Shown here piece by piece: positions 24,072-50,542 of a DNA stretch of 64,000 bases (the first letter of the stretch is position 1; every line of letters starts with the position of its first letter). Source of the stretch: an uncultured delta proteobacterium (GTDB lineage Bacteria > Myxococcota_A > Polyangia > Fen-1088); NCBI GenBank assembly GCA_963767925.1, contig CAVYGB010000010.1:288001-352000 (forward strand). The letters run 5' to 3'. Below the pieces are notes generated by a model. The model did no database searches. It saw only the letters and a list, made by a program, of their open reading frames with translations, and was not told the DNA's origin. A program made the translations under genes and the position numbers.

Positions 24072-24379
24072 GGACCGACGGAAGGACAGTCGCGATGGCC
24101 GCACGCCCGGGGCCCGGGCTGACGGGGGCCAGCGCCGGTCGGGCTGGCCGGGGCGCCGGCTCGGACCCAGCTTGACGCTTGCGGTTGGGACCTCTGGGCC
24201 TGGGGGTCCAGGGCGGGCCGCAGGAGATCAAGGCCCTGGCGTCCGGCTTTCCAGGGGCTCACCGGGACGTTTCGGGTTGTTCGCCCGGAATGAGGGACGA
24301 AGGTGCGACTGTTGGGCGGGCGAACCGGTTCCCGGCACACCTTGCGGGGGAGACGGGCCTTGCCCCGGAAGGACGGAAC

Positions 24380-25393
24380 ATGCAGCTCGGAATGATCGGC
24401 CTCGGTCGGATGGGTGCCAACATGGTGCGGCGGCTGCTGCGCGGCGGGCACCGCTGCGTGGTGCACGACCGGAGCGCGGAGGCGGTGGCGGCGATGGTCC
24501 GGGAGGGGGCCCAGGGCGCCGCCTCGGCGGCCGAGCTGATCGCGGCCCTGGAGGCCCCCCGCACCATCTGCCTGATGGTGCCGGCGGCGGTCGTCGACGG
24601 GGTGATCGGGGAGCTGGCGCCCCGGCTCGCCCGGGGTGACACGCTGATCGACGGCGGCAACTCGCACTACCAGGACGACCTCGCCCGCAGCCGCCGCCTC
24701 GGGGAGCAGGGCATCCACCTCATCGACATGGGCACCAGCGGCGGCGTGTGGGGGCTCGAGCGGGGCTATTGCCTCATGATCGGCGGCGACGGCGAGGTGG
24801 TGCAGCGCCTGGATCCGATCTTCGCCACCCTGGCGCCCGGACGGGGGGACATCCCGCGTACGCCGGGGCGGGAAGCGCGCGGCGGGACGGCCGAACAGGG
24901 GTACCTGCACTGCGGGGCCAGCGGCGCCGGGCACTTCGTGAAGATGGTCCACAACGGCATCGAATACGCGCTGATGGCGTCTTACGCCGAGGGGCTCAAC
25001 GTCCTCAAGAAGGCCAACGTGGGCAAGCAGACCCACGCCGCCGATGCCGAGACCACTCCCCTGCGCCACCCCGAGCACTACCAGTACGACTTCGACCTCG
25101 CCGAGATCGCCGAGCTGTGGCGGCGGGGCAGCGTCGTTTCCTCCTGGCTGCTCGACCTCACCGCCGGGGCCCTGCTGGGCGACCCCGCGCTCGGGCGCTT
25201 CGGCGGGCGGGTGGCCGATTCGGGCGAGGGGCGCTGGACGCTGGCCGCGGCCAACGACGAGGCGGTGCCGGCCCACGTGCTCGCGGCGGCGCTGTTCGAG
25301 CGCTTCGCCTCGCGCGGGGAGGACGACTTCCAGAACCGGGTGCTCTCGGCGATGCGCCTCGGGTTCGGCGGGCACGTGGAGAAGGCGGAATGA
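24380..25393 (+). CDS. gnd: Decarboxylating 6-phosphogluconate dehydrogenase (short type)
   Basis: [43 protein letters not shown] and FGGH. Confidence 0.95.
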
Positions 25394-26800
25394 CCCGCCC
25401 GGCAGCGGGGGGACAACCTCCGCCGGCGCAGTCCGACGCCCTCGTCTTCTTCGGGGCCACCGGGGATCTGGCCTACAAGAAGATCTTCCCCGCCCTGCAG
25501 GCCCTGGTGGCCCGGGGCCGGCTCGACGTCCCGGTGATCGGGGTGGCCAAGTCGGGCTGGCGACGCGACGACCTGATCGCCCGGGCCCGGGCCAGCCTGG
25601 TCGAGGCCAAGACCCTGGAGAGGCCGGCCTTCGAGAAGCTCGTGTCGCTGCTCCGCTACGTCGACGGGGACTACAACGATCCGGAGACCTTTCGCCAGCT
25701 CGGGGTGGAGCTCGGCGCCGCCCGGCGGCCCGCCTTCTACCTGGCCATCCCCCCCAGCCTGTTTCCCCTCGTGGTCGACCGGCTGGCCGGGCTGCCGGGC
25801 GCCGGGCAGGCGCGGGTCATCCTCGAGAAGCCCTTCGGCCGCGACCTGGCCTCGGCCCGGGCCCTCAACGAGACCTTGCTGCGCGCGTTCCCCGAGCCGT
25901 CCATCTTCCGCATCGACCACTACCTCGGCAAAGAGCCGGTGCAGAACATCCTCTACTTCCGCTTCGCCAACAGCTTCCTCGAGCCGATCTGGAACCGGTC
26001 CTACGTGGAGAACGTCCAGGTCACGATGGCCGAATCATTCGGGGTCAAGGGCCGGGGCAAGTTCTACGACGAGACCGGGATCCTGCGCGACGTCGTGGAG
26101 AACCACCTCCTGCAGGTCATCAGTTACCTGGCCATGGAGGCGCCCTCGACCGGCTACCCCGAGGCGATCCGGGACGAGCAGGCCCAGATCCTGCGCAACA
26201 TCCGCCCGCTCCACCCCGACGAGCTGGTGCAGGGACAGTTCCGAGGCTACCGCCAGGAGCCGGGCGTGGCCCCCGACTCCCGGGTGGCCACCTTCGCGGC
26301 CCTGCGCCTGCACATCGATTCCTGGCGCTGGCACGGTGTCCCCTTCTACGTCCGGGCCGGCAAGCAGCTTCCGGTGACCTGCACCGAGGTGATCGTGGAG
26401 CTGAAGCGGCCGCCGCCGGTGGTGTTTCCCGAGGAGGTGACGGCCGGCGGCAACTACCTGCGCTTCCGGCTGAGCCCCCAGGTGGCGATCGCCCTCGGCG
26501 CCCGGGCCAAGCGGCCCGGCGAGGCCATGGCAGGGTGACCCAGTCGAGCTGAAGGTGATGGAAGAGACCCTGGAGGCCCACGGCCAGCACATGGACGCCT
26601 ACCAGCGGCTGCTGGGCGACGCGATGGCCGGGGACCCCACCCTGTTCGCCCGGCAAGACGTCGTCGAGGCGGCCTGGGCGGTCGTCGATCCGGTGCTGCG
26701 AGCCTCCGGCCCCCTGCACGTCTACGAGCCGGGCTCCTGGGGGCCACCGGAGGCCGACGCGCTCGTGCATGAGGTGGGTGGCTGGAACACGCCCGCCTGA
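25390..26800 (+). CDS. zwf: Glucose-6-phosphate 1-dehydrogenase, frameshifted near 26533
   Basis: [22 protein letters not shown] and [12 protein letters not shown]. The C-terminus ([22 protein letters not shown]) continues in another frame after one extra G. Confidence 0.92.
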
Positions 26801-34148: not shown

Positions 34149-34165
34149 GGGGCGCCGGCCGCCAG

Positions 34166-35011
34166 ATGGAGTTCGTCAAGTACCACGCCCTGGGGAACGA
34201 CTACCTCGTCATCGCGCCGGGCGCGCCCGGCGGCGCGGCTCCCTCGGGCGATCGGATCCGGGCCATCTGCCACCGGAACTACGGGGTGGGCAGCGACGGG
34301 ATCTTGTGGGGCCCGCTGCCGGCCCCCAGCGGGTCGTTCGGCCTGCGCATCTTCAACCCCGACGGCAGCGAGGCGGAGAAGAGCGGCAACGGCGTGCGCA
34401 TCTTCTGCCGGTTCCTGTGGGACCGGGGCCAGGTGCGGGAGGAGCCCTTCACCGTGCTGACCCCCGGTGGGCCGGTGCGGGCGACCGCCCTCGACGGAGG
34501 GCGCTCCTTCCGGCTCGACATGGGGCGGGTGCGCTTCGGCAGCGAGGAGATCCCCCTGCGCGGCCAGCCCCACGAGGTGCTGAACGAGACCCTGGTTGCG
34601 GGCGACCGCACGTTCACCTTCTGCGCCGCCACCGTGGGCAACCCCCACTGCGTCGTGCTGCTGCCCGAGGTGGACGAGGCCCTGGCCCGCCGCTACGGCC
34701 CGCTCATCGAGCGCGACCCCCGCTTCCCCAACCGGACCAACGTCCAGTTCATGCGGGTCCGGGACCGAAACAACATCGAGATCGAGATCTGGGAGCGGGG
34801 GGCCGGCTACACCCTGGCCTCCGGCACCAGCGCCAGCGCCGCGGCCGGGGTGGCCCGGCGCCTGGGCCTCGTCGACGCCGACGTCCAGGTGCACGCGCCC
34901 GGCGGGGCGCTGGAGGTCAAGCTGGACGAGCAGTACCGGGTCGAGCTCACCGGTCCGGTGACCCGGGTGGCCTCCGGGGTGATCGATCCGGAGATCCTCG
35001 GGCCCGGCTGA
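34166..35011 (+). CDS. dapF: Diaminopimelate epimerase family protein (Ser-for-Cys active-site variant)
   Basis: KYHALGNDY, GVGSDG, IFNPDGSEAEKSGNG, VGNPHCV, FPNRTNVQF and WERGAGYTLASGT. Confidence 0.85.
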   Translation: MEFVKYHALGNDYLVIAPGAPGGAAPSGDRIRAICHRNYGVGSDGILWGPLPAPSGSFGLRIFNPDGSEAEKSGNGVRIFCRFLWDRGQVREEPFTVLTPGGPVRATALDGGRSFRLDMGRVRFGSEEIPLRGQPHEVLNETLVAGDRTFTFCAATVGNPHCVVLLPEVDEALARRYGPLIERDPRFPNRTNVQFMRVRDRNNIEIEIWERGAGYTLASGTSASAAAGVARRLGLVDADVQVHAPGGALEVKLDEQYRVELTGPVTRVASGVIDPEILGPG

Positions 35012-35117: not shown

Positions 35118-37019
35118 GTGAACGAGCCGGGGCTCACCCCCTTCGACTTTCACCTGCTGGCCGAGGGGACCCACGGCAACCTCCACGACAAGCTGGGCGC
35201 CCACCTCGTGGGAGAAGGTGACCGGGCCGGGACGCGCTTCGCGGTCTGGGCCCCCAACGCCGAGGCGGTGGAGGTTGTCGGGGACTTCAGCGGCTGGCGC
35301 ACGGGCGGGATCGCGCTCGAGCCGGTGGCGCTGACCGGCGTCTGGCAGGGGTTCGCCCCCGGCGTCGGCGCCGGGCAACGTTACAAGTACCGGATCCGCT
35401 CCCGGCACCGGGGCTACACGGTGGACAAGGCCGACCCCTTCGCCTTCGCCGCCGAGACGCCCCCCGCCACCGCCTCGGTGGTCTGGGCGCCCGACCACGT
35501 CTGGCAAGACGACGACTGGATGCGCATCCGACGGGCGCGCAACGCGCTGGACGCGCCCATCTCGATCTACGAGGTGCACCTCGGCTCCTGGATGCGCGAC
35601 CCGGAGCAGCCCGAGCGCTTCCTCGGCTACCGGGCCCTGGCTCCCCTGCTGGTGGACCATGTCCAGCGCACCGGCTTCACGCACGTCGAGCTGATGCCGG
35701 TGATGGAGCACCCGTTTTACGGCTCCTGGGGCTACCAGGTGACGTCGTTCTTCGCCCCCAGCGCCCGCTTCGGATCGCCCTCGGACTTCATGTTCCTGGT
35801 CGACACCCTCCACCGCAACGGCATCGGCGTGATCCTCGACTGGACCCCGGCCCACTTTCCCACCGACGAGCACGGGCTCATGTACTTCGACGGCACCCAC
35901 CTCTACGAACACGCCGACCCCCGCCAGGGCATTCACGCCCACTGGGGCAGCGCCCTGTTCAACTACGACCGCAACGAGGTGCGGAGCTTCCTCATCTCGA
36001 ACGCCAACTTCTGGCTCGAGCGCTACCACGCCGACGGGCTGCGGGTGGACGCCGTCGCCTCGATGCTCTACCTCGACTACGGCCGCAAGGAGGGCGAGTG
36101 GATCCCCAACCGCCACGGGGGCCGGGAGGACCTGGCGGCGGTGGACTTCTTGCGCACCTGCAACGAGTCCATCTACCGCGCCCACCCCGACGTGCACAGC
36201 ATGGCCGAGGAGTCGACCTCCTGGCCCATGGTGACCCGCCCGACCTATCTGGGAGGCCTCGGCTTCGGCATGAAGTGGGACATGGGCTGGATGCACGACA
36301 CGCTCGAATACGCCGCTATCGATCCCCTGTTTCGCCGGCACCACCACCACAAGCTCACCTTCCGGGGCATGTACGCCGCCTCGGAGAACTTCATCTTGCC
36401 GCTCTCGCACGACGAGGTGGTGCACGGCAAGGGTTCGCTCTCGACAAGATGCCGGGCGACACCTGGCAGAAGTTCGCCTCGCTGCGCCTGCTGTATTCCT
36501 ACATGTGGGCGGTGCCGGGCAAGAAGCTGCTGTTCATGGGGGGCGAGTTCGGCCAGTGGCGGGAGTGGAGCCACGAGCGCAGCCTGGACTGGCACCTGCT
36601 GCAGGAGTCGGCCCCGCACGGGCAGCTGCAGCAGCTGGTGCGCGAGCTCAACCGCCTGCTGCGGGCCGAGCCGAGCCTGCACGAGCTGGACTTCGATCGG
36701 GCCGGGTTCGAGTGGATCGCCGCCGATGACGTCGAGAACAGCGTCTACGCCTTCGTGCGCAAGGGGCGCGACCCCGACGCGTCCCTGGTGTGTGTCTTCA
36801 ACTTCACCCCCGTCCCGCGCTATCGACTACCACCTCGGCCTGCCCCGGGAAGGGACCTGGATCGAGGCGCTGAATAGCGACGCCGCGCCTTTTGGCGGCA
36901 GCAATTTGGGGAACCTGGGGGGTGTGACGGCGGCGGCTATTCCGTCCCACGGGCGTGCGTTCTCGGCCCGTCTGACGTTGCCGCCGCTGGCGGCGCTCTT
37001 CTTGAAGCACCGGGACTGA
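35118..37019 (+). CDS. glgB: 1,4-alpha-glucan branching enzyme, two compensating frameshifts (~36440, ~36823)
   Basis: [42 protein letters not shown] and [11 protein letters not shown]. The segment [20 protein letters not shown] sits in the alternative frame. Confidence 0.93.
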
Positions 37020-37045: not shown

Positions 37046-37178
<133 letters not shown>

Positions 37179-37256
37179 GACGTGAACGGAAGACGTGAAC
37201 GGAAGACGTGAACGGAAGACGTGATCGGAAGACGTGAACGGAAGACGTGATCGGAA
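37179..37256. repeat. 13-bp tandem repeat GACGTGA(A/T)CGGAA x6
   Basis: Read directly; abuts the hexamer run and has no spacers. Confidence 0.9.
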
Positions 37257-37366
37257 GACGTCAGACGTGCACGTCTCTCGTGCTCGTCGTCGTTCACGGG
37301 ACCCGTCAGACGTGCACGTCTCAGGTGCTCGTGCTCGTGCACGCAAGACGTGCACGGATTTCAGAC

Positions 37367-38038
37367 CTAAGGCCCGGCTTCGTACCCGTCGTGAAGCTTC
37401 ACCGTCAACGCGTCCCCGGGCTGGACCCCCTCGAACGCGTAGCTGGCTCGGCCCGCGCCCCGGATCGCCTGCAGGGGAGCCGATCCCAGCTTCACGTAGC
37501 CGTAGACCTGATCGCCGTCGGGATCGCTCACCTGGACGGTGACGACCACCTTGCCCATCTCCAGGGCGGGGGCCCCCTTGACCTCGTAGACCGGCTTGCG
37601 GTTGGGGCCCCGCTTGGCGCAGCTCGCGGCGCTGGCCATTGCCCAGCGATCGAGCACCGTCGCCTCGTACTCCGAGAGAGGGCTGGCCGGCGGCGGCGGC
37701 ATCCGCAGGATGTCCGGGGCGCCCGGGCCGGTCTGGATCGAGATGGCCCCAGCCGCCGAGGCGGCGCCCCCCACAACGGGGTTCCCCGCCGTGTCGGTGC
37801 CGAGGATCCAGAGCTTCTCGGCGGTGAAGGCGGCGTTGAACGGCGCCGAAGTGCAGATGTCGTAGCGGGTGGTCGGCGCGATCTCGCTGCCGGCCGTGGA
37901 CCCGTGGCAGTGGCTGCAGCTCCCGCGCAAGATGGGGTAGACGTCGAGGTCCCAGCTCGGGGTGGCGGGGGGCTCGGGCGCGCCGCAGGCGACCGAGCCG
38001 ATCGTCGCCAGACACACCGCCGCCATCGTCCGTCCCAT
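37367..38038 (-). CDS. Lipoprotein with a single CxxCH (putative c-type heme) motif
   Basis: MGRTMAAVCLATIGSVAC lipobox; PSWDLDVYPILRGSCSHCH and RMPP..LS..E...LDRW. Confidence 0.7.
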   Translation of the reverse strand: MGRTMAAVCLATIGSVACGAPEPPATPSWDLDVYPILRGSCSHCHGSTAGSEIAPTTRYDICTSAPFNAAFTAEKLWILGTDTAGNPVVGGAASAAGAISIQTGPGAPDILRMPPPPASPLSEYEATVLDRWAMASAASCAKRGPNRKPVYEVKGAPALEMGKVVVTVQVSDPDGDQVYGYVKLGSAPLQAIRGAGRASYAFEGVQPGDALTVKLHDGYEAGP

Positions 38039-38433
38039 CTTCACCCCCTGGTAAGTAAAGCAGACGGTCAGGTCCGGGGCAAAGCCCCCGGGCTGACCAG
38101 GGTGCCCCCCGGCTGGCCGGGTTGAAAGATCGGGCCGACCGAGCGTCTCTACAGATGGGAGCCGGGAGGAGGGGGGGGCAGCGGATGTCAGGCGGCGCGG
38201 AAGCAAAGATGCTGGAGCGACGCTGCCCATCCGGTCTCCACTCGGCGGACGATTTCCAGGGCAGACCCCGGCAATAGAGACGTCACGACGTTGTCCGGCG
38301 AGCGACGGGTTGCACCTGTGGCCCGCCGGAGATCGAGGAGAAGCAGCCGATCGCCGCGGAGACGGGCCGGGGGGCCTCTTCGGCGCACGGCTGTGCCAAG
38401 CGCCGCGCGAGCGGCAGAACAAGGAGAACGCGT

Positions 38434-38589
38434 ATGGAGAGCAATGTGGCCGTGTTTCCGATGGAGTCCGCCGTTCAGGCCTTCGAGTCCGCGGTGCAGC
38501 CGTTCGAGTCGGCCGTGCAGCCGCTCGAGTCCGCGGTGCAGCCGTTCGAGTCGGCCGTGCAGCCGTTCGAATCGGCGGTGCGCGGATAG
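38434..38589 (+). CDS. Putative repeat-cassette RiPP precursor peptide, 51 aa (MESNVAVFPMESAVQAFESAVQPFESAVQPLESAVQPFESAVQPFESAVRG)
   Basis: RBS AAGGAGA at 38421, ATG 38434, TAG 38587-38589. Much of the variation between the 21-nt repeats is synonymous in this frame (TCC/TCG, GCC/GCG, GTT/GTG, GAG/GAA). It is the first gene of the YcaO operon. Confidence 0.85.
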   Translation: MESNVAVFPMESAVQAFESAVQPFESAVQPLESAVQPFESAVQPFESAVRG

Positions 38590-38624
38590 GCCCGAAGATC
38601 GTTCGGCGTAAGCGTTGTTGAAAG

Positions 38625-38664
38625 GCGGGAGGAGGTGGCCGGCACCTCGACCACCTCCTCCCGC
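38625..38664 (+). promoter_or_regulatory. Perfect 14-bp stem-loop between the precursor and the modification genes
   Basis: GCGGGAGGAGGTGG-N12-CCACCTCCTCCCGC with no U-tract. Confidence 0.7.
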
Positions 38665-38683
38665 TCGTGAAGGGAACACGACG

Positions 38684-39484
38684 ATGACCAGCACGGCCCA
38701 GTACTTCGATGCCCGCGCCACACGCTACGACGAGGAGTTCTCCGACGGCAGCGTCTGGAGCATCGCCCATCGGATCGCCTGGCGGCTGGTCCAGCCCCAC
38801 CTGCCGCGCGGGCGGGCCCTCGAGGTCCTCGACGCCGGCTGCGGTACCGGCAAGTGGGGCCGGCCCTTCTCGGCGGAGGGGCAGGCCGTCACCTACAGCG
38901 ATCTGTCCCCGAAGATGGTGGAGCAGGCGCTGGCCCTGGCCCGCGCGGCCAACCCGCGGGCCCCCAGCGAGGGGGCCACCCTCTCGGTCGACGCGCTCGA
39001 TGGGCTGCCCGACGCCCGCTTCGACCTCGCCCTGTGCATGGGCGATCCCCTCTCGTACGCCGCGGACCCACCGCGCGGGATCCGCGAGCTGACCCGGGTC
39101 ACCCGGTCGGGCGGCCTCATCCTGGTCAGCGTCGACAGCCGCCTCGGCTACCTGCGGGTGTTCAAGGAGCGCGACGGCTACGACCTCGATGCCCTGGCCC
39201 GCTTCCTCGAGACCGGAGATCTGCCCCGCTCCTGGGAGGGGTTGCCCCTGCACGCCTTCACCCCGGAGGAGCTACGGCGCGCGTTCGATCGAGCCGGGGC
39301 GGACACCGTCGCGGTCTGGTCGCTCCCCACCGTCTCGGCATACTTCCTCTTCGATCCGGCCTTCCGCGCCCGCCTGACCGATCCCGGCTTCGTCGACCGC
39401 CTGGTCGAGCTGGAGCTGGGGGCCCTGGGGCTGGGAGGCGCGCCGGGCACCCACCATCTGTATGGGGTCTTTCGACGGCGATGA
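38684..39484 (+). CDS. Class I SAM-dependent methyltransferase
   Basis: VLDAGCGTG, DLSPKMV, RFDLALC and RVTRSGG. Confidence 0.9.
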   Translation: MTSTAQYFDARATRYDEEFSDGSVWSIAHRIAWRLVQPHLPRGRALEVLDAGCGTGKWGRPFSAEGQAVTYSDLSPKMVEQALALARAANPRAPSEGATLSVDALDGLPDARFDLALCMGDPLSYAADPPRGIRELTRVTRSGGLILVSVDSRLGYLRVFKERDGYDLDALARFLETGDLPRSWEGLPLHAFTPEELRRAFDRAGADTVAVWSLPTVSAYFLFDPAFRARLTDPGFVDRLVELELGALGLGGAPGTHHLYGVFRRR

Positions 39485-40335
39485 GCGCGAACCCTGCCAC
39501 CAGACCAGGCGCGCCGATCGACCCGCCCCCCGCGCGGGAGGTCCCCGAAACACGCGCCTTCCCCACCTCCGACGCTTCCCCCGCCCCCCTTGCCTTCCTC
39601 GACTTCCTGGGCGCGGTCCGGACCGTGCGCCACTTCGCGCCGGAGCCCGTTCCCCAGGCGGTGATCGATCGGGCCATCGCCGCCGGCCAGCGCGCCCCGA
39701 GCGCCTCGAACAACCAGCTCTATTCGGTCATCCAGATCGACGATCCCGCCCTGCGCACGTGCATCGCCGACGCCATGGTGACCCAGGACTTCGTGCGGGC
39801 GGCGCCGACCTGGCTCATGGTCTGCGTCGACTGGAGCCGCCAGGACGCGGTGGGGCGCACGCTGGGCCTCCGCACGAAGCTCAACCGCGAGGCCCGGCGC
39901 TTCACCGGGATCGTCGACGCCAGCATCTTCGCCCACCACCTCGGGCTGGCGCTGATGGCCCAGGGGATCGGGTCCTGCCTCATCGCCAGCCCCTGGACCG
40001 CGCTCCGCAAGCTGGCGCGCCTGCTGGCCATTCCCGAGCGCTCGGCCATGCCGCTGCACCTGCTCATCGCCGGTTTCCCCGCCGAGCAGCCGGCCGCCCG
40101 GCCCCGCTACCCGGCCGCCATGATCGTCAGCCAGGACCGCTTCCGGGCGCCCGACCCGGCGGAGGTGGCCCGCTACCTCGACGAGGGCGACCGGCTGCTG
40201 CGGGGCCAGGGCTACTTCGCCTCGGCCGACACCGGCGTCCACTCCTGGCACGAGCTTTACCGCGTGCGCTACAGCGGGGTCGCGCGGCGCCGCACCTGGA
40301 CCCCCCTGCGGAGGGACCTTGCGCGCTTCCTGTGA
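39481..40335 (+). CDS. Nitroreductase-family flavoprotein (NfsA/FRP-like)
   Basis: RTVRHF, RAPSASNNQ, VDASI..H..LA...QGIGSC and GFPAEQP..RPRYP; ATGA overlap with the methyltransferase. Confidence 0.85.
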   Translation: MSANPATRPGAPIDPPPAREVPETRAFPTSDASPAPLAFLDFLGAVRTVRHFAPEPVPQAVIDRAIAAGQRAPSASNNQLYSVIQIDDPALRTCIADAMVTQDFVRAAPTWLMVCVDWSRQDAVGRTLGLRTKLNREARRFTGIVDASIFAHHLGLALMAQGIGSCLIASPWTALRKLARLLAIPERSAMPLHLLIAGFPAEQPAARPRYPAAMIVSQDRFRAPDPAEVARYLDEGDRLLRGQGYFASADTGVHSWHELYRVRYSGVARRRTWTPLRRDLARFL

Positions 40336-42541
40336 CCGCCTGCTGCGCACGGTGGATGCGGCCTGGCTGGGAGCAACCAGCTACGGCCTGTTTGCCGCCG
40401 ACGGCGCGTCGGTGCGGCGCTGGGTTGTCGCGGGGACGCCGCAGGAGCGGGCCCGCTGGTGTGCCCTCTTCCGGCGGGGCATCTCGATCGCCGACCTGCT
40501 GCTCCTCGAGCCGCGCTGGCGGCGCCGGGACATGCGGGCCTTGCTGCGGAGCTGGCTGCACAGCGGCTGGCTCGACGGAGCCGTCCTTCCGGCCGAGCCG
40601 GCCGATGGGGGTGCGGGGTCCGCGCCGGCGGGGGAGCCGGCGCCGGCGCCGGGCGGGGTGATCACCTTCGGCGACGCGCCCGCGCTCCGCCTGCTGCTGC
40701 CGGGGACCAGCCACCGGCCGCGCCAGGGAGGATCCACCGCCTGGATGCGGTCCCTGCTCGCGGCGGCTGCCCCGCGGCTGGTGATCTACGACGCGCAGGC
40801 GATGCAGTGGTCGGGGCTCTCGGTGTTGCACCGGCAGGTGGTCGGGCGGGTCGACCTCCTCGCGCTGTTCCGGCTGGGCGGCTGCTTCGCCGCGGTCGCC
40901 CTCCCCGCCGGATCGGAGGCCTGCCTGGGCTGCGCCGAGCGCTGGCTGATCGGCTCGTCCCCCTTCCCCCGGGAGATCGGCGCCTGGCTGCAGGGGCTGA
41001 TCACCGAGGCCACCGGACAGGTCGAGCCGCTGCCGCTGCCCTGGGCGCGCGAGCTGGCCGACCTCGCCGCGGGCCTGGGGCACGGGCAAGCAGGGACCGC
41101 CAGCGTCACGGTGGCGACCAGCGGCGAGCCGCCGCAGCGGGCGCGCCTGCGGCAGCACCCCTCCTGCCCCGGCCGCCATCGCCCGCCCCCCCTGCCGGCG
41201 CGACCCGGGTCGGCGGCACCGGCGGCGGTAGCGCCGCTGCCGGCGGTGCCGCCGCGCGCGCCAGGCGAGGAGCGCACGTCGGGGGTGCTCGCGCGGTGTC
41301 TGTCCGAGCTGGCCGGGCCGGCCGGGCTGTTCCGCGGCCTGCAGGTGGAGGACGTCGGCGAGCCCGGCGGCCCGAGCTACTACTTCGCCCGGGCGGCGTT
41401 CAACACCGGCTTTCGCACCCACCACGGCGACCCGGTCCACTGCTTCGGCGACGGCGAGGACGCCGCGCTGGCCTCGCTCCGCTGCGCCGCCGAGTGCCTC
41501 GAGCGCTTCTGCACTTTCCACTTCGACAGCCGGTCCTGGCGCCGGGCCACCTGGGCGGAGCTCGGCGACCACGCCGTCGCCCCGCCGAGCCTGACGCTCT
41601 ACTCGGAGGCGCAATATCAGACGCAGGGCTTCCCCTTCCCCCGGTTCGATCCCCACCGCCCGGGCGACTGGCTGCGCGGGCACGCGCTGGCCAGCGGGCG
41701 CGAGGTGTGGGTGCCGGCCGAGCTGGTCTTCGTCGGCTACTCGGCGCCGGCCGCCCTGACCATCGAGACCTCGGCCGGCGCCGCCACCCAGCAGAGCTTC
41801 GAGGCCGCCGCCGCCGCCGGCCTGCTCGAGGTGCTCGAGCGCGACGCCCTGGCCGTCACCTTCCTCGCCGGGCACGCCCCGCCGCGCCTGTCCCTCCCCG
41901 CCGAAGGCGAGACGAGCGACCGGGTGCGGCTCATGCGCGACAGCGGCTACCAGGTCGTCGCGCTCGACCTGACCCTCGATCTGGAGATCTCCGTCGTCCT
42001 GGTGCTGGCGCTGCGGCCCGGCGGCCCGGGTCCGCTCCTCCTCAAGGGCGCCGGCTCGTCCTTCCGGCGCGAGCGCGCCCTGGCTCAGGCCATGCGGGAG
42101 CTGTGGCGCAGCTTCCTCTACTATCGCCGGCACCCCGAGGCGGCGACCGTCGCCCGCAGCGCCCACCCCTGGAGCCTCGAATATGGGCTGGCCTACTACC
42201 AGCGCCCGGAGGCCCTCGCGACCCTCCGCTTCCTCCTGCAGGGGCCAGAGGCCCCGGCGAGCGCGAGCACCGCCGAGCCCGACACGCTCCCGCGGCTGGT
42301 CGAAGCCTGCGCCCGGGCCCAGCTCGAGCCCATCGCCGTCGACTGCACCCTGCCGATGCTGCGCGAGGTCGGCCTGCACTGCGTGCGGGTGCTGGTGCCG
42401 GGCCTGCAACCGCTCAGCGTGGGCGAGGCGCCCTGGCGCCTGGGTGGACAGCGGGTGCTCGACCTGCCCCGGCGGCTCGGGTGGCGCGACAGGCCCTTGA
42501 CCGAGGGGGAGCTCCACCGCGCTCCGCACTTTTTCACATGA
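40319..42541 (+). CDS. YcaO-family enzyme with N-terminal putative RRE and E1/ThiF-like region
   Basis: YcaO ATP/Mg motifs AECLER, TSAGAA and LLEVLERDA, plus VWVPAELVF, VRVLVPGLQP and C-terminal PHFFT. N-terminal ACLGC and HPSCP resemble fused TOMM cyclodehydratases. The start codon is uncertain. Confidence 0.88.
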   Translation: MRASCDRLLRTVDAAWLGATSYGLFAADGASVRRWVVAGTPQERARWCALFRRGISIADLLLLEPRWRRRDMRALLRSWLHSGWLDGAVLPAEPADGGAGSAPAGEPAPAPGGVITFGDAPALRLLLPGTSHRPRQGGSTAWMRSLLAAAAPRLVIYDAQAMQWSGLSVLHRQVVGRVDLLALFRLGGCFAAVALPAGSEACLGCAERWLIGSSPFPREIGAWLQGLITEATGQVEPLPLPWARELADLAAGLGHGQAGTASVTVATSGEPPQRARLRQHPSCPGRHRPPPLPARPGSAAPAAVAPLPAVPPRAPGEERTSGVLARCLSELAGPAGLFRGLQVEDVGEPGGPSYYFARAAFNTGFRTHHGDPVHCFGDGEDAALASLRCAAECLERFCTFHFDSRSWRRATWAELGDHAVAPPSLTLYSEAQYQTQGFPFPRFDPHRPGDWLRGHALASGREVWVPAELVFVGYSAPAALTIETSAGAATQQSFEAAAAAGLLEVLERDALAVTFLAGHAPPRLSLPAEGETSDRVRLMRDSGYQVVALDLTLDLEISVVLVLALRPGGPGPLLLKGAGSSFRRERALAQAMRELWRSFLYYRRHPEAATVARSAHPWSLEYGLAYYQRPEALATLRFLLQGPEAPASASTAEPDTLPRLVEACARAQLEPIAVDCTLPMLREVGLHCVRVLVPGLQPLSVGEAPWRLGGQRVLDLPRRLGWRDRPLTEGELHRAPHFFT

Positions 42542-43806
42542 GCGGCGCGGTCGACAGCCTCCTGCCCGGGTCGCCGGCGGTGCCGGGACCGGCGGCGCGG
42601 CCTGGCCCGACCGCCGGCGCGCTCGCCCCCCTGCCGGCGCGGGCCGCGGACCACGGGCGCGGGCTGCGGCTGCGGGCCTGGCGCGAGAAGTTCCACCGCC
42701 TCCCGGGCCGGTCGGGGCAGGAGGCCGAGACCGAGGCGGCCATCCTCGGCGAGCTGGCCGGGCTCGGGCTTCCCTTTCACCTCGAGGGCCGGCGCCCGGG
42801 GCTGGTGGTCACCCTCGCCGGGAGCGACGGCCCGACCCTCACCGTGAGGGCGCCCATCGACGCCCTCCCCGTCCAGGAGGAGACCGGACTGGCCTGCGCC
42901 TCCACGGTCCCCGGCGTGATGCACGCCTGTGGCCACGACGCCAACATCGCCGTTCAGCTCGAGCTGGCCCGGGCCTTCGCCGCCGACCCGCCCGCCCGGG
43001 GCCACCTGCGGCTCCTGTTCCAGCCCGAGGAGGAGACCCTCACCGGTGCCCGCCACATGCTCGACAGCGGCACCCTGGCGCTGGGTCCCCAGGACGCCCT
43101 GTGCAGCTTTCACCTCAGCCCATCGCTGCCGCTCGGGCGGGTGGGGCTGGCCGAGCCGGTCGCCCTGGCGTCGGTGGACGACTTCACCCTCGAGCTGACC
43201 GGGGGGGGCGGCCACGCCGGCTCGCCCCAGGCGGCGTCCGACCCGATCCTCGCGGCCAGCGAGCTGATCGGCCGCCTGCCCGGGCTGATCCGCCGCCGCC
43301 TCGATCCCCGCGACGTCGTCACCTGGACCATCGGCCGGCTCGAGGCGGGCACCGTCCGCAACGTTGTGGCGCCGCGCGCCCGGCTGGAGGGCACCCTCCG
43401 CTACTTCGAGGAGGCCGCCGCCGCCGCGGTCCGGGCGGCGCTGATCGGCGAGCTGCAGGCGGTGGCCGTGGCCCACGGCCTGGGGGCCGCTCACCAGTTC
43501 CGGACGGTGGTCCCCTCGCTGCGCAACGATCCGGCGCTGGGCGGCCTCTTCCTCGAGACCGCCGCGGCCCGCCTGGGGGCCGCGCAGGTCGATCGCCTGC
43601 GGCCCTCGCTGGCCGCCGACGACGCCGCGTACCTGCACGACCGGGCGCCCGGCGTCTACTGGCTGGTCGGCTGCGCCGCTCCGGAGGGCCCCACCCCACC
43701 ACTGCACAGCAGCCGCTTCGACTTTCCCGAGCCGACGCTGGAGATCGCCTTCGAGCTGCTGCGCGACTTCACCGACCGCTTCTTTGCAAGGAGAGCCCAC
43801 CCATGA
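42538..43806 (+). CDS. M20 (ACY1/hippuricase-like) amidohydrolase
   Basis: RAPIDALP, MHACGHD, LFQPEEE, GGGGHAG.P and LHSSRFD; ATGA overlap with the YcaO gene. Confidence 0.9.
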   Translation: MSGAVDSLLPGSPAVPGPAARPGPTAGALAPLPARAADHGRGLRLRAWREKFHRLPGRSGQEAETEAAILGELAGLGLPFHLEGRRPGLVVTLAGSDGPTLTVRAPIDALPVQEETGLACASTVPGVMHACGHDANIAVQLELARAFAADPPARGHLRLLFQPEEETLTGARHMLDSGTLALGPQDALCSFHLSPSLPLGRVGLAEPVALASVDDFTLELTGGGGHAGSPQAASDPILAASELIGRLPGLIRRRLDPRDVVTWTIGRLEAGTVRNVVAPRARLEGTLRYFEEAAAAAVRAALIGELQAVAVAHGLGAAHQFRTVVPSLRNDPALGGLFLETAAARLGAAQVDRLRPSLAADDAAYLHDRAPGVYWLVGCAAPEGPTPPLHSSRFDFPEPTLEIAFELLRDFTDRFFARRAHP

Positions 43807-44690
43807 CCCGCATTCTCGATGGCTGCTTCGTTGCCCTCGCCACCCCGTTCCGGGGCGGCGCCTTCGACGCCGACACCTACCGCCTCCACTGCGAGGCGGT
43901 CCTCGCCGGCGGGGTCGACGGCCTGGTCCCCTGCGGCACCACCGGAGAGGCCCCCACCTTGACCCGGGAGGAGTGGGCCGAGAACGTCCGCATCGCCGTG
44001 CGCGCCGCCGCCGGCAAGCCGGTCATCGCCGGCGCCGGGGCCTACGCCACCGCCGAGGCCATCGAGCTGGTGACCGTCGCCCGGGAGCTCGGCGCGCAGG
44101 CCGCCCTGGTTGTCACGCCCTACTACAACCGGCCCTCCCAGGACGGGCTGGTCGCTCACTTCGCCGCCATCGCCCGGGCCGTGCCCGGCTTTCCCCTGGT
44201 CGCCTACAACGTGCCCTTCCGGACGGGGATCGATCTGCTGGCCGCCAGCTACCCGAAGCTGGCCGAGGTCCGCGAGGTGGTGGCGGTCAAGGAGGCCACC
44301 AGCAACATGGCCCGGGTCACCGAGATCCGACAGCTCGTCGGCGAGCGGTTCGCGCTGCTGGCGGGCGACGACCTCACCATGTTGCCTTTCCTGGCGGCGG
44401 GGGGCCAGGGGGTCATCAGCGTCTCGGCCAACCTGGCGCCCCGGAAGGTGAGCGCCCTCATCCAGGCCGCGCGCGCCGGCGACTACCGCGCCGCCGGCGC
44501 CCTCAACGACGAGCTGGCGCCCCTGCACCTGGCCCTCGCCGAGGGCAACCCGGTGCCGGTCAAGGCGGCGCTGCACCTGCTGGGCCGCTTCGCCGACGAG
44601 CTGCGCCTGCCCCTGCTGCCGGCCGGCCCCGCGACCCGCGACCGCCTGGCCCGGGCCCTGGCCCGGCTGAACCTGACCCCGAAACAGTGA
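43803..44690 (+). CDS. dapA: 4-hydroxy-tetrahydrodipicolinate synthase
   Basis: ALATPF, GTTGE, TPYYNRP, YNVPFRTG, Schiff-base KEA, GDD and NPVPVK; ATGA overlap. Confidence 0.88.
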   Translation: MTRILDGCFVALATPFRGGAFDADTYRLHCEAVLAGGVDGLVPCGTTGEAPTLTREEWAENVRIAVRAAAGKPVIAGAGAYATAEAIELVTVARELGAQAALVVTPYYNRPSQDGLVAHFAAIARAVPGFPLVAYNVPFRTGIDLLAASYPKLAEVREVVAVKEATSNMARVTEIRQLVGERFALLAGDDLTMLPFLAAGGQGVISVSANLAPRKVSALIQAARAGDYRAAGALNDELAPLHLALAEGNPVPVKAALHLLGRFADELRLPLLPAGPATRDRLARALARLNLTPKQ

Positions 44691-44703
44691 GGAGGACCGG
44701 AAG

Positions 44704-46155
44704 ATGCGCACCTGGCATGGGCTCCCCGAGAGCGACGACCGCTTCGTGACCGACTACTTGCGGGTCACCGACGCCTTCTACGAAGGGCGGATGACCGACG
44801 CCGACTGGCGGGCCTGGTACGACCAGCGGCTCGCGGTGGTGCTTCGCCACGTCACCGCCCGTTCGGCCTTCTACCAGCGGCACTTCGCCGGGATCGACGT
44901 CGGCTCGATCGACCTGACCTCGCTGGCCCGCCTCCCCTTCACCACCAAGGACGACCTGCAGGCGGCCCGCTACGACATCCTGAGCGGCAGCATCCGCGAC
45001 GCCCAGTTCTTCTACGCCACCACCGGCACCACCGGGCCCTCCACCCCCTGCCCCCGCGACAAGAAGGACCTGTTCACAACGAACCATCAGATCGCCATGG
45101 GCATGCGGCGGATCCTGGAGGCCCACCTCCCCGGGCAAAAGCCCCTGCTGGCGGTGATGGCCCCCAACGAGCTGCACTCCATCTGCAACACCTTCGCCTC
45201 GGTCGCCTTCGAGCTGGGCATCTGCAAGCTCGATCCTTACCCCGCCTCCCTGGTGATCGGCTTCGAGAAGTGCGTGAAGCTGCTGCAGGAGCTGCAGGTC
45301 GAGATCGTGCTGGGCACGCCCGGGCTGGCCCTCATCCTGGCCCAGATCTGCGAGATGTACGGCCTCGATCCCAGACGCGACCTGGCCCTCAAGCTGTTCT
45401 TCTCCACCGGCGAGATCTGCACCCCCGCCATGGAGCGCAACATCGAGCGCATCTACGGCTGCAAGGTCTACAACTTCATCTACGCCTCGCAGGAGTCGGC
45501 CACCATGGCCCTGGCCTCGCCGGCCAACACCTATTACCCCACCCTGCCGAACTACATCTTCGAGGTCGTCGACCCGGACGGCAGCGCGTCTTACGGGCTC
45601 ACCGGGACCGGCGAGCTGTGCGTGACGATGCTGGTCGACGGGATCAAGCCCCTCATCCGTTACCGCACCGGCGACCTCGTCACAATCCGGGAGGAGGCCG
45701 GGGCGACCGGCCCCTACCGCCACAGCCTGCAGGTGCTCGGCCGGCGCAAGGACACCGTCGCCCTCGGCGGCCGCCCGGTGGCCGCCCGCGAGCTCGAGCA
45801 GCTCATCATGGAGGAGGTGCACTCCTGCCTCGGCTACCAGATCGTGATCGCCAGCGCGGGCGGGGCCGACACCCTGGAGGTCAAGCTGCAGGTCCAGCAC
45901 GGGGCCGACGTCTACAAGGACGAGGTGCGGGCGCGCCTGGCGGCCAAGCTGGCCCAGCGGCTGGGGGTGGCGAGCACCGTCAGCTTCGTCCTGCAGCTCG
46001 ACGACATCGTGAACACGGGCGGCTGGATCAGCTGGAAGGCGGCCCGGGTTGTCGACCGGCGCCAGGACAGCGACAAGCGCACCGCCGAGGCGATGGCCCT
46101 GGAAAAACACATGGCGCGCCACCTGGCCAGCGGCGCCGATCCGCTGGTCCTTTGA
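44704..46155 (+). CDS. Phenylacetate-CoA ligase (PaaK)/F390 synthetase-like adenylate-forming enzyme
   Basis: LPFTTKDDL, P-loop TTGTTG, TGE, YASQE, RYRTGD and LGRRKD. Confidence 0.85.
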   Translation: MRTWHGLPESDDRFVTDYLRVTDAFYEGRMTDADWRAWYDQRLAVVLRHVTARSAFYQRHFAGIDVGSIDLTSLARLPFTTKDDLQAARYDILSGSIRDAQFFYATTGTTGPSTPCPRDKKDLFTTNHQIAMGMRRILEAHLPGQKPLLAVMAPNELHSICNTFASVAFELGICKLDPYPASLVIGFEKCVKLLQELQVEIVLGTPGLALILAQICEMYGLDPRRDLALKLFFSTGEICTPAMERNIERIYGCKVYNFIYASQESATMALASPANTYYPTLPNYIFEVVDPDGSASYGLTGTGELCVTMLVDGIKPLIRYRTGDLVTIREEAGATGPYRHSLQVLGRRKDTVALGGRPVAARELEQLIMEEVHSCLGYQIVIASAGGADTLEVKLQVQHGADVYKDEVRARLAAKLAQRLGVASTVSFVLQLDDIVNTGGWISWKAARVVDRRQDSDKRTAEAMALEKHMARHLASGADPLVL

Positions 46156-46181
46156 GACGACGAAAAACGGGAGGGGAGCAC

Positions 46182-47387
46182 ATGAAGACATTTGCGGTCA
46201 CCGGGGCGACGGGCCTGCTGGGTAGCAACCTCGTTCTGCACATCCTCAAGGAGCACCTCGACGCGCTCGACGGGATCCGGATCTTCGTCATCGGGCGGGG
46301 CGGGTCGCTCGAGGTCCACCAGCGGGTCGCGGCCCAGATCCGCAAGACCGGCTGGCCGGCGCTGATGGCCGCGCGCGACGAGGCGCTGCTCGACCGGGCT
46401 TGCGCGGTGCTGGCCCCCATCGAGCTCGACGTCACCGACGACCGGGCCGCGCTGAGCCCGACCGCCGCCGCCGCCATCGGCCCCGGCGGCGTCGACGAGC
46501 TTTACCACATCGCCGCCCTCACCGACTTTCGCCGCCAGAGCCACGTGGAAGAGCGGCTGCGCCAGACCAACGTGGGGGGGACCCGAAACGTGCTCCGCCT
46601 GGTCGACGCGATCCCGGGCGGGGTCCGGAAGCTGGCCTTCGTGGGCTCGGCCTACGCCTGCGGCAAGACGGTCGGCTCGATCGCCCCCGACTACACGAAC
46701 ATCGAGCAGGAGTTCCGCAACCCCTACGAGCGGAGCAAGCTGGAGTCCGAGGTCCTGGCCCGGCGCTCTTGCCAGGAGCGGTCGATCCCCTGCAAGGTGT
46801 TCCGTCCGTCCACCATCGGCGGTCGCCTGCTGGCCCCCCCGATCGGCCACGTCACCAAGTGCGACGTGTACCTCGGCTGGCTGTATTTCTTCCTCCGCCT
46901 GAAATCGAAGATCCTCAACACCAGCAACTGGGCGGAGATCTGCGCCACCCCGGTCGAGATCCCCATCCGGATCCAGGCCAACCTCGAGGTGGGTCTCAAC
47001 ATCGTGGGCGCCGACGTCGCCGCCGCCGCCATGTACTCGGCCATGCAAGAGGACGACGTCTCCCGCAGCTACCACCTCGTCAGCGAGCGGGACCTCCCGG
47101 TCGGCCCGATGCTCGATCACATGTTGACCGCGGCCGGGGTCACCGGCTGGTCTATCGTCCGCCAGCGCCCCCAGTCCGAGATCAACCGCTTCGAGCGCAT
47201 CTACTACGCCAGCGTGGGCGACATCTACACCCCCTACGTCATCCACGAGCGCAACATGGACTTCGAGCACAGCGCCACGATCCGCGCCTGGAACGGCCAC
47301 GGCCCCCTCGTCTCGGTCGACACCGTCGGCACCTTCGCGAAGCTGGTCCGGTACGCCTTCGACAAGAAGTTCGACATGGCCGACTGA
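46182..47387 (+). CDS. Extended SDR, thioester-reductase/fatty-acyl-CoA-reductase-like
   Basis: VTGATGLLG, HIAALTDF, NVGGT, YERSK and FRPSTIGG. Confidence 0.82.
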   Translation: MKTFAVTGATGLLGSNLVLHILKEHLDALDGIRIFVIGRGGSLEVHQRVAAQIRKTGWPALMAARDEALLDRACAVLAPIELDVTDDRAALSPTAAAAIGPGGVDELYHIAALTDFRRQSHVEERLRQTNVGGTRNVLRLVDAIPGGVRKLAFVGSAYACGKTVGSIAPDYTNIEQEFRNPYERSKLESEVLARRSCQERSIPCKVFRPSTIGGRLLAPPIGHVTKCDVYLGWLYFFLRLKSKILNTSNWAEICATPVEIPIRIQANLEVGLNIVGADVAAAAMYSAMQEDDVSRSYHLVSERDLPVGPMLDHMLTAAGVTGWSIVRQRPQSEINRFERIYYASVGDIYTPYVIHERNMDFEHSATIRAWNGHGPLVSVDTVGTFAKLVRYAFDKKFDMAD

Positions 47388-48180: not shown

Positions 48181-48645
48181 TCAGTGCTCGGTGCTGGTGG
48201 CGAAGCGCAGGACGTGCCCGTCGAGATCCGACACGTGCATCTCGCGCAGCCCCCAGGGCATGTTCCGCGGCGGCATCAGGATGCGGGCCTTGTTGCGGGC
48301 GAACTGGCGGTGCAGGTCGTCCACGTCCTCGGCGAACAGCATCACCCAGGCGCCCGGCTGTCCCTGACACTGCTGGCACATGAACAGGACGCCGTGCCCG
48401 CGGCTGACCGAGCCGAAGTCCGGCGGCTCGCCGTGTTCCCAGTCGACCTTGAAGCCGAGGACGTCCCGGTAATAACGCTGGCTCGCCTTCAGGTCGCGCA
48501 CGTTGAGGATCGGTCGCGCGCAGGACAGCTCGTCGGGATCGTGCGCGCAGGCCCGCGCCGCCTCCATCAGGGGCGACCGCCCTCCCCCCTTGCACCCCAG
48601 CACCCCCAGAACCAGGAACGCGACCGCGGCGATCTTGCTGCCCAT
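48181..48645 (-). CDS. Glyoxalase/bleomycin-resistance family protein with a lipoprotein-like N-terminus
   Basis: YYRDVLGFK, DVDDLH and MPWGLREMHVSDLDGHVLRF; N-terminal LGVLGC. Confidence 0.8.
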   Translation of the reverse strand: MGSKIAAVAFLVLGVLGCKGGGRSPLMEAARACAHDPDELSCARPILNVRDLKASQRYYRDVLGFKVDWEHGEPPDFGSVSRGHGVLFMCQQCQGQPGAWVMLFAEDVDDLHRQFARNKARILMPPRNMPWGLREMHVSDLDGHVLRFATSTEH

Positions 48646-50413: not shown

Positions 50414-50542
50414 ATGAAGAAGCGCGGCGAGAAGCCAGAAACCAAGGAGCTGGTCGAGCTGAGCAGCGAGGAGCTGGAGGCCGTCAGCGGCGGTCGCGAC
50501 GGCAAGAACCGCCCTCCGCGCACCGGCAACCGCCCCCGCTGA
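50414..50542 (+). CDS. Double-glycine-leader peptide, 42 aa (MKKRGEKPETKELVELSSEELEAVSGG-RDGKNRPPRTGNRPR)
   Basis: RBS AAGGAGA at 50399, canonical ELSxEELxxVxGG leader; below the ORF-track size cutoff. Confidence 0.82.
   Translation: MKKRGEKPETKELVELSSEELEAVSGGRDGKNRPPRTGNRPR

Follow-up and report, generated by a model that had tools for sequence, protein, structure and literature searches.

A cluster of eight co-oriented genes on the + strand (38434-47387) was identified in the window, as the whole 64,000-nucleotide stretch of DNA analysed here is called. The window has a G+C content of 72% and lies on contig C10 of G000, a metagenome-assembled genome (MAG) of 9.3 Mb in 13 contigs that is 83.8% complete. 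The genes encode, in order, a small repeat peptide, a methyltransferase, a nitroreductase-superfamily flavoprotein, a YcaO protein fused to E1-like and RiPP recognition element (RRE)-like parts, an M20 amidohydrolase, a paralogue of DapA, a PaaK-like ligase and a short-chain dehydrogenase/reductase (SDR) (Table 1). The cluster is likely an orphan biosynthetic operon of the kind that produces peptides made by ribosomes and modified after translation (RiPPs), with the 51-aa open reading frame (ORF) at its head encoding a leaderless precursor that consists of cassettes only.

The eight ORFs of a preliminary description of this DNA were all recovered, as were the junctions between them: 4-nt ATGA overlaps at methyltransferase/flavoprotein, YcaO/M20 and M20/DapA, a 17-nt overlap of the flavoprotein and YcaO genes, and gaps of 13 and 26 nt ahead of the last two genes. 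A gap of 94 nt separates the precursor ORF from the methyltransferase gene. The G+C content at third codon positions (GC3) is 0.90-0.96 in all eight ORFs. Pfam and NCBIfam searches upheld the enzyme families to which the proteins had been ascribed.

Table 1. Position and assignment of the features of the cluster
Feature	Position	Strand	Remarks
Candidate precursor peptide, 51 aa	38434-38589	+	AAGGAG 8 nt before ATG
21-nt tandem repeat, 5.6 copies (also 42 nt x 2.8)	38464-38581	+	Tandem Repeats Finder
Stem-loop, 15-bp G+C-rich stem	38624-38665	+	between precursor ORF and methyltransferase
Class I S-adenosylmethionine (SAM)-dependent methyltransferase, 266 aa	38684-39484	+	Methyltransf_25, E 1.6e-15
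Nitroreductase-superfamily flavoprotein, NfsA/FRP-like, 284 aa	39481-40335	+	Nitroreductase, E 2.9e-17
Fused RRE-like + E1-like + YcaO (SagD-type), 740 aa, TTG start	40319-42541	+	YcaO, E 6.4e-61
M20 amidohydrolase, 422 aa	42538-43806	+	Peptidase_M20 + M20_dimer; TIGR01891 228.6 vs cut-off 153.75
DapA paralogue (4-hydroxy-tetrahydrodipicolinate synthase family), 295 aa	43803-44690	+	DHDPS, E 1.8e-75
PaaK-like adenylate-forming ligase, 483 aa	44704-46155	+	AMP-binding/AMP-binding_C_2, weak
Extended SDR, NAD_binding_4/putative thioester-reductase type, 401 aa	46182-47387	+	NAD_binding_4, E 9.3e-25

The fused YcaO protein and a counterpart in another phylum

The YcaO protein matches PF02624 with 206.9 bits over profile positions 2-324 of 325, and exceeds the cut-off of TIGR03604 (SagD/thiazole/oxazole-modified microcin, TOMM) with 242.5 bits against 219.25. 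A profile built from eight members of its family matches LynD and MusD and also TruD, the last of these from profile position 188 (8.6e-38). In the AlphaFold2 (AF2) model of the protein (predicted local distance difference test, pLDDT, 77.3; predicted template modelling score, pTM, 0.79) a small beta/three-helix N-terminal part is followed by an E1-like middle and the YcaO domain. Foldseek analysis of this model ranked LynD, TruD and MusD at the top, as full-length matches with about 690-850 aligned columns at 16-19% identity, and its N-terminal half also matched McbB, ThiF and MccB. The protein had been labelled an E1-like/YcaO fusion, and the family profile, the model and the fold matches to cyanobactin-type heterocyclases all bear this out. 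The ExxE pairs E392/E395 and E504/E507 are invariant in the eight family members (8/8), and are putative ATP/Mg (nucleotide)-binding residues. A CxxC...HPSC pattern is conserved in the E1-like part, and the C-terminus of the family reads (P)HFF[ST], with H737, F738 and F739 invariant and a single Pro. Prediction of a complex of the YcaO protein with the peptide returned a score of 0.00, which weighs neither for nor against binding.

Judging from the databases searched, the fused family is very rare. A HMMER search of 1.84 billion representative proteins gave 5,917 hits at E<=0.001; among the best 150 of these, seven also cover the N-terminal half, namely P0002 (65% identity) and P0005-P0010 (33-39%). 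Five of the seven align from residue 23 of the YcaO protein or earlier, and two from about residue 150. Four of 41 relatives of G000 matched, with a full-length match in G000 only. Within the phylum of G000 (401 genomes) there were four matches at E<=1e-30, of which the three besides G000 itself cover profile positions 342 onward only. Two metagenome scans and a first scan of genome contigs for relatives of the protein yielded no locus, and a tblastn search of plasmids found two half-length matches only. A pattern scan of 185,579 species genomes gave at least 361 confirmed YcaO relatives, 80 of which were kept; a single one of these 80 loci, L010, matches residues 34-739 of the YcaO protein (36% identity). 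L010 is an Actinomycetota MAG record (genome G436). Eight of 401 genomes in the phylum of G436 matched at E<=1e-40, full-length in G436 only, and the one match among the 86 genomes of its order is G436 itself.

G000 carries two further YcaO genes, at about 534108-535612 and 1949406-1950967 of contig C2 (loci L108-L111), each adjoining a TfuA gene. These are candidate thioamide-forming pairs. Both TfuA copies of the genome lie there beside other YcaO genes and none was found in the window, which fits a TfuA-independent, non-thioamide role for the YcaO protein of the cluster.

The YcaO protein of L010 has 690 aa. Ahead of its gene, in the same orientation and coupling, stand homologues of the methyltransferase (54% identity) and then of the flavoprotein (47-48%). 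A similar small ORF at homologous YcaO loci was the test that the preliminary description had proposed, and one was found in L010, the sole comparison locus, an outcome in favour of that description. This ORF MSAAVLTESAVRPMESAILMESAVL follows an AGGAGG sequence and ends 26 nt upstream of the methyltransferase gene. It encodes 25 aa, in which MSAAVLT is followed by the units ESAVRPM, ESAILM and ESAVL; it thus has three ESA(V/I) units, with spacers and a repeat number that differ from those of the window. The counterpart of the cluster is embedded in a larger set of genes (2556-18532 of L010) for ATP-grasp, FemAB-like, carrier-protein, P450, AMP-binding and other proteins.

The repeat peptide

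The candidate precursor begins with MESNVAVFPM and continues with the cassettes ESAVQAF, ESAVQPF, ESAVQPL, ESAVQPF, again ESAVQPF, and a terminal ESAVRG. A Ser is present in every cassette. It carries no recognisable leader, with 10 residues ahead of the first full cassette. No Pfam family matched the peptide, and the NCBIfam hits were sub-threshold and spurious only. A role resembling that of LysW, an amino-group carrier, was considered for the peptide and rejected on finding no globular or zinc-finger part.

Across the six units the ESAV codons show 28 pairwise synonymous differences and no non-synonymous ones, counts that do not represent independent events as units 2+3 and 4+5 arose by a recent 42-nt duplication. 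Every difference in the three tail codons of the cassettes changes the residue. The Ser codons of the L010 repeat are AGC once and TCC twice. Synonymous-only variation of the ESAV codons and the TCC/AGC usage in L010 point to selection acting on the peptide. The pair of motifs ESA[VIL]...ESA[VIL] within 12 residues occurs at this locus only (five overlapping hits) in the six frames of the 9.3-Mb genome, in which single ESA[VIL] motifs number 441 in 18,673,934 codons. Across 1.54 Mb of loci around other YcaO genes the pair was found in the window and in L010 only. The comparison with this one locus from another phylum supports the small repeat ORF as a conserved partner of the fused YcaO family. 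The conserved E-S-A-V may be the product, or else a junction or processing signal between cassettes of the type AVQPF-ES.

The opposite strand holds a second repeat-bearing frame. An 82-aa antisense ORF (38475-38723, -) repeats TADSNGC four times in its C-terminal half and would offer the YcaO protein Cys, Ser and Thr, the classic cyclisable residues, behind a long N-terminal part that could act as a leader. The two frames share their wobble positions, so that GC3 and the synonymous pattern cannot separate them. The antisense ORF nevertheless opposes all eight genes and overlaps both the start of the methyltransferase gene and the hairpin, while Shine-Dalgarno sequences precede the sense ORFs in both loci. 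In L010 the antisense frame lacks a start codon ahead of its first TADS, which directly follows a stop; it has no Cys in the repeat region, and its middle unit reads IALS in place of TADS, where the sense frame keeps ESAI/ESAV. The comparison with L010 thus makes it unlikely that the antisense ORF is the precursor, and a reading in which it is the true one appears extremely improbable.

The 106-nt stretch that holds the hairpin between the precursor ORF and the methyltransferase gene has a predicted folding energy of -49.1 kcal/mol (z = -3.59), and none of 200 shuffled sequences was as stable. The hairpin possibly stabilises the mRNA or acts as an attenuator. Ribosome-mediated attenuation was rejected on account of L010, where merely 26 nt lie between the peptide ORF and the methyltransferase gene. 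A scan of 37900-38800 for promoters and terminators found no sigma-70-like site and no canonical + strand terminator.

So strong a hairpin 3' of the small ORF would also suit a reading in which this ORF, with an attenuator hairpin behind it, is no substrate at all but a leader peptide with a regulatory role or a DNA repeat that is read by chance, while the YcaO protein modifies another protein or peptide. YcaO enzymes that modify full-size proteins do exist, according to the available text of one report (PMC13063428), and the search of the protein collection returned no homologue of the small protein. Against this, the amino-acid motif is kept across phyla although codons and repeat number differ, the position of the ORF is the same, and the gap to the methyltransferase gene in L010 is 26 nt; the motif pair is unique in the whole genome, and heterocyclases that modify peptides have the same fused RRE/E1-like architecture. 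The regulatory or chance reading is considered highly improbable, and the 51-aa ORF is retained as the likely precursor.

Partner enzymes and the second half of the cluster

In the PDB, the methyltransferase matched only generic class I methyltransferases. For the flavoprotein, the best NCBIfam model is the NfsA equivalog (98.9 bits, and 109.2 for the L010 protein, against a cut-off of 223), and its PDB matches are NfsA, FRP, YcnD and NfrA. An AF2 model of it, built from a two-row alignment, reached a pLDDT of 42.7. The preliminary description had noted that flavoproteins can oxidise azolines; the NfsA/FRP-like affiliation of this one lies outside the SagB/McbC family, and for it this role is an analogy and not a family assignment. 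It clearly belongs to the conserved core of the system, though not to the classical azoline-dehydrogenase family.

The M20 protein belongs to the N-acyl-amino-acid amidohydrolase subfamily (TIGR01891), and its closest solved structures are YxeP, an ILR1-like protein and N-acyl-glutamine aminoacylase. The DapA paralogue scores 269.6 bits on TIGR00674, above the equivalog cut-off of 206.15, can be aligned from one end to the other with solved DapA structures, and retains GTTGE, PYYNRP, YNVPFRTG and AVKEAT, among which we presume the catalytic Lys and substrate-binding residues to lie. Among the six DHDPS-family genes of G000 it ranks second: one copy elsewhere scores better, and four are more distant. 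With 49% identity to the best, presumed housekeeping copy, it looks like a working enzyme of the pyruvate/aspartate-semialdehyde type that was recruited as an extra copy. The gene of a diaminopimelate epimerase (DapF; 33734-35011, +) is found 3.4 kb upstream of the cluster, a location worth recording beside a cluster-borne DapA copy; it is probably a housekeeping gene.

The ligase is PaaK-like only, with 102.7 bits on TIGR02155 against an equivalog cut-off of 646.3. Homologues with 43-44% identity on plasmids of Pseudomonas syringae and Streptomyces adjoin anthranilate-synthase and flavodoxin genes, and one relative in the protein collection is named after the benzoxazolinate ligase SgcD5. From these neighbours and this name the subfamily is taken to be one that usually activates aromatic or heteroaromatic acids. 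P0154, a much closer homologue at 79% identity, is a JGI protein whose one contig has a length of 41,857 bp; the same holds for the YcaO homologue P0002, and the two are presumably co-located. The SDR scores 87.7 bits on Pfam NAD_binding_4 (cut-off 20.1) and 52.5 bits on TIGR01746 (cut-off 213), and a PDB search gave the terminal reductase of MxaA as a weak match; it is probably of the thioester/acyl-CoA reductase type.

It had been asked of the cluster whether its partner genes are conserved together, and in L010 they are so in part. The order of methyltransferase, flavoprotein and YcaO is the same, and a DHDPS-family gene lies 3.4 kb from the YcaO gene (34% identical to the DapA of the window; 206.7 bits on Pfam), one of two such genes in G436, the other of which scores better and is presumably the housekeeping copy. 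The PaaK-like ligase and the SDR have no counterpart there, and the M20 protein is a distant one. L010 encodes instead an AMP-binding enzyme, a carrier protein (PCP), a thioesterase (TE), a P450 and a class IV aminotransferase, together with an ATP-grasp amino-acid ligase, a flavin mononucleotide (FMN)-dependent dehydrogenase and a FemAB-like protein. This gene set suggests a RiPP/non-ribosomal hybrid. By this single locus, the peptide, the methyltransferase, the flavoprotein, the YcaO protein and a nearby DapA paralogue are co-conserved in a second phylum.

Such partial conservation leaves room for two modules in one transcript, a self-contained RiPP unit of precursor, methyltransferase, flavoprotein and YcaO, and a second unit of M20, DapA, PaaK-like ligase and SDR that would not act on the peptide but produce or salvage some unrelated small molecule, such as a derivative of the dipicolinate/lysine branch. 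The conserved order at 36-54% identity is limited to the first four genes, and the second-half genes that L010 lacks or has in another subfamily (PaaK-like ligase, SDR and M20, respectively) all belong to this second unit. The DapA paralogue keeps the GTTGE, YNVPxRTG and K-E-A-T of true DapA at its 49% identity to the presumed housekeeping protein, and homologues of the ligase are found elsewhere in aryl-acid pathways beside anthranilate-synthase genes. The ATGA overlaps at YcaO/M20 and M20/DapA, however, couple the two halves translationally. A second DapA copy also lies at most 3.4 kb from the YcaO gene in a genome of another phylum with two DHDPS genes, for which the chance by position alone is estimated at about 0.5%, and the homologue of the PaaK-like ligase would travel with the closest YcaO homologue if the two JGI proteins share their 41,857-bp contig, as we infer. 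An independent second module is accordingly regarded as rather unlikely, and a single operon whose second half acts on the peptide is preferred.

Proposed pathway, related systems and surroundings

If the cluster is a RiPP operon, the fused YcaO protein would bind the peptide through its N-terminal RRE-like/E1-like part and ATP-activate the Glu-Ser backbone amide of each unit, with the Ser hydroxyl closing an oxazoline. The NfsA-like flavoprotein, which is co-translated, may turn the oxazoline into an oxazole by oxidation, and the methyltransferase would add a methyl group. The units could be freed without a dedicated endoprotease, either by housekeeping peptidases together with the M20 enzyme or by the YcaO protein itself, as has been reported for MusD. 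A lineage-variable module would then elaborate the fragment: a DapA paralogue is present in both loci and the adenylate-forming enzyme differs, the adenylating partner being the PaaK-like ligase with the thioester-reductase-like SDR here, and the AMP-binding, PCP and TE proteins in the actinobacterial locus. The ligase and the SDR might convert an acid through a thioester to an aldehyde that is used by the DapA-type aldolase; alternatively, DapA might supply a dihydrodipicolinate-like acid that the ligase activates and attaches. Most likely, each precursor yields several copies of a small modified peptide as the end product. All steps on the peptide, from its modification and excision to methylation, acylation and reduction, are predictions.

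As the preliminary description had remarked of the cluster itself, it shows no TfuA, transporter or dedicated endoprotease; Pfam detected none of these in the cluster or in the scanned flanking ORFs, several of which have no Pfam hit of any kind. Likewise, Pfam gave neither peptidase_S8 nor any other protease family besides M20 among the eight proteins or the scanned flanks.

Several points weigh against this interpretation. A precursor without a leader is atypical for RRE-dependent heterocyclases, and the peptide had no hit at E<=1 in a collection of 5.8 billion proteins, in which proteins of 28-90 aa were considered. Its conservation rests on n = 1 comparison locus. In that locus neither the PaaK-like ligase nor the SDR is found, and its M20 protein, with 30% identity over 165 residues, is of a different subfamily. 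A Pro-rich (PxPxP-type) C-terminal motif is typical of azoline-forming YcaO proteins and is absent here; a Glu at position -1 of a cyclised Ser would also be unusual. For the flavoprotein, NCBIfam gave no SagB-type dehydrogenase model even at E<=10. Azole formation by this protein is unsupported because it is NfsA/FRP-like and has no SagB-type match. Finally, DapA may merely supply an intermediate like those of primary metabolism.

The YcaO protein may have a different chemistry. It could chiefly cleave the backbone in an ATP-dependent manner, as is reported of MusD, or form something other than azolines, with ES|AV as the junction and the variable middle as the core. MusD ranks with the closest matches by both structure and profile and, in the available part of the report on it, is described as removing C-terminal residues in an ATP-dependent reaction (PMC10885120). 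The cluster has no protease; the invariant E-S-A-V flanks residues that vary, namely QPF, QAF and QPL in the window and RPM and LM in L010, much as recognition sequences flank variable cores, and both peptides end shortly after the last ES-AV. The cores would, however, have merely two or three variable residues, and membership in TIGR03604 together with the invariant Ser fits ordinary cyclodehydration equally well, the sequence offering nothing to distinguish cleavage from cyclisation. A YcaO protein that acts chiefly as a cleaving enzyme or forms a non-azoline product is held to be a minority possibility, and cyclodehydration at Ser is kept in the preferred pathway.

By architecture the cluster resembles the heterocyclase systems of cyanobactins and of linear peptides that contain azol(in)es (LAPs), yet it fails the defining features of cyanobactins, LAPs and thioamidated RiPPs alike. 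The cyanobactin heterocyclases (PatD, TruD and LynD, and MusD of the muscoride pathway) have the same N-terminal peptide-binding, E1-like and YcaO parts in one polypeptide, and cyanobactin precursors can carry several cassettes, as here. Cyanobactin products are short, and linear ones are capped at their termini. Unlike cyanobactin clusters, this one has no PatA/PatG-type proteases or macrocyclase, no PatE-like leader and no prenyltransferase; its hosts are non-cyanobacterial (the Actinomycetota MAG of L010, and G000 with 72% GC), and its partner enzymes comprise an NfsA-like flavoprotein and M20 as well as a DapA paralogue, a PaaK-like ligase and an SDR. LAP clusters likewise combine a SagD-family YcaO with a nitroreductase-superfamily flavoprotein and a methyltransferase, the nucleophile here being Ser. 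They differ in that the flavoprotein of the window is NfsA/FRP-like and not of the SagB/McbC type, the precursor is leaderless and made wholly of repeats, and the cluster adds DapA, M20, PaaK-like and SDR genes, for which the literature searched gave no description alongside a YcaO gene.

The thiovarsolins of Streptomyces varsoviensis (VarA/VarY/VarT), which are YcaO-dependent RiPPs, offer a further parallel: in the available text, a precursor with imperfect repeats gives rise to several copies of a product of tripeptide size with no dedicated protease (PMC6511847). Related clusters are described in the same text as adjoining ATP-grasp and non-ribosomal genes (PMC6511847), and L010 resembles them in such neighbours. 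As far as that text goes, however, thiovarsolins are thioamides that require TfuA and derive from a VarA with a leader, in contrast to the fused SagD-type YcaO without an adjacent TfuA described here. The same lack of a neighbouring TfuA sets the YcaO protein of the window apart from the thioamidated RiPPs (YcaO-TfuA) in general. With the DapA of lysine/diaminopimelate biosynthesis, the paralogue shares an equivalog-level score and motifs, but it is here an extra copy inside a specialised operon. The preliminary description knew of no characterised RiPP class with this enzyme set, and none was found in the open full-text literature, subscription-only papers being outside the search. MusD, which cleaves the peptide backbone in an ATP-dependent manner without a protease according to the text available (PMC10885120), is a precedent for release of the units by the YcaO protein.

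A bolder proposal would make the system a new RiPP class or a RiPP/non-ribosomal hybrid. In it, a leaderless, cassette-only peptide would be recognised at the ES-AV junctions and the YcaO protein would both heterocyclise and cut; the resulting azol(in)e fragments would be joined to, or extended by, a DapA-derived unit (dihydrodipicolinate- or dipicolinate-like) through the adenylate-forming enzyme. The product might be small and rich in heterocycles, for instance a metal chelator, and each round of translation would give five or six copies of it. This proposal is speculative and on balance doubtful. The cluster is in any case a very rare and uncharacterised one, and a promising candidate for a new natural product derived from a peptide. 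Were the preferred reading true, it would add a precursor type with no leader and repeats only, would place cyanobactin-type fused heterocyclases at work outside cyanobacteria, and would be the first link of a RiPP core to a dedicated DapA paralogue together with enzymes that activate and reduce carboxylates. With its 9 kb and eight genes the system is small and self-contained, so its predictions lend themselves to direct tests, both by expression in a heterologous host and in vitro with a synthetic 51-mer; more members could be mined with the conserved ES-AV element as a simple handle.

The cluster is bordered upstream by a divergent 223-aa ORF without a Pfam hit; the genes that border it downstream, of the DUF1428 and glyoxalase families, are convergent. 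A gene 0.8 kb downstream of the cluster (48181-48645, -) encodes a protein of the glyoxalase/bleomycin-resistance family whose N-terminus resembles that of a lipoprotein; this gene may serve in self-resistance or have no link to the cluster. A perfect hexanucleotide microsatellite (ACGAGC x 22.2), directly followed by a 13-nt repeat x 6.5 (together 37046-37261), lies in the intergenic stretch that separates glgB from the divergent 223-aa ORF.

Some of the neighbouring genes look frameshifted. The gene for the glycogen-branching enzyme (35118-37019, +, and 36098-36877, +) seems to change frame twice, pointing to a broken gene or to assembly indels: one frame encodes CBM_48, the C-terminal domain and part of the alpha-amylase domain, and the middle of the protein is in another. 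A 6-phosphogluconate-dehydrogenase ORF (24179-25393, +) matches the first 30 positions of its C-terminal domain only, and an 81-aa ORF (26555-26800, +) corresponds to the last part of G6PD_C only. The assembly may thus contain indel errors; all eight ORFs of the cluster are intact. No RNA run was listed among the sequencing runs that contain the sequence. A soil DNA run contains 6% of the sampled words; it gave short fragments only, of which some are identical to the window, most are less than 90% alike and none lies over the precursor ORF, so that it is not informative.

Downstream, a 42-aa ORF MKKRGEKPETKELVELSSEELEAVSGGRDGKNRPPRTGNRPR (50414-50542, +) without a Pfam hit is found beside a 288-aa ORF and an ankyrin-repeat protein. 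It contains an ELSxEELExVxGG stretch that presumably resembles a leader of the double-glycine type.

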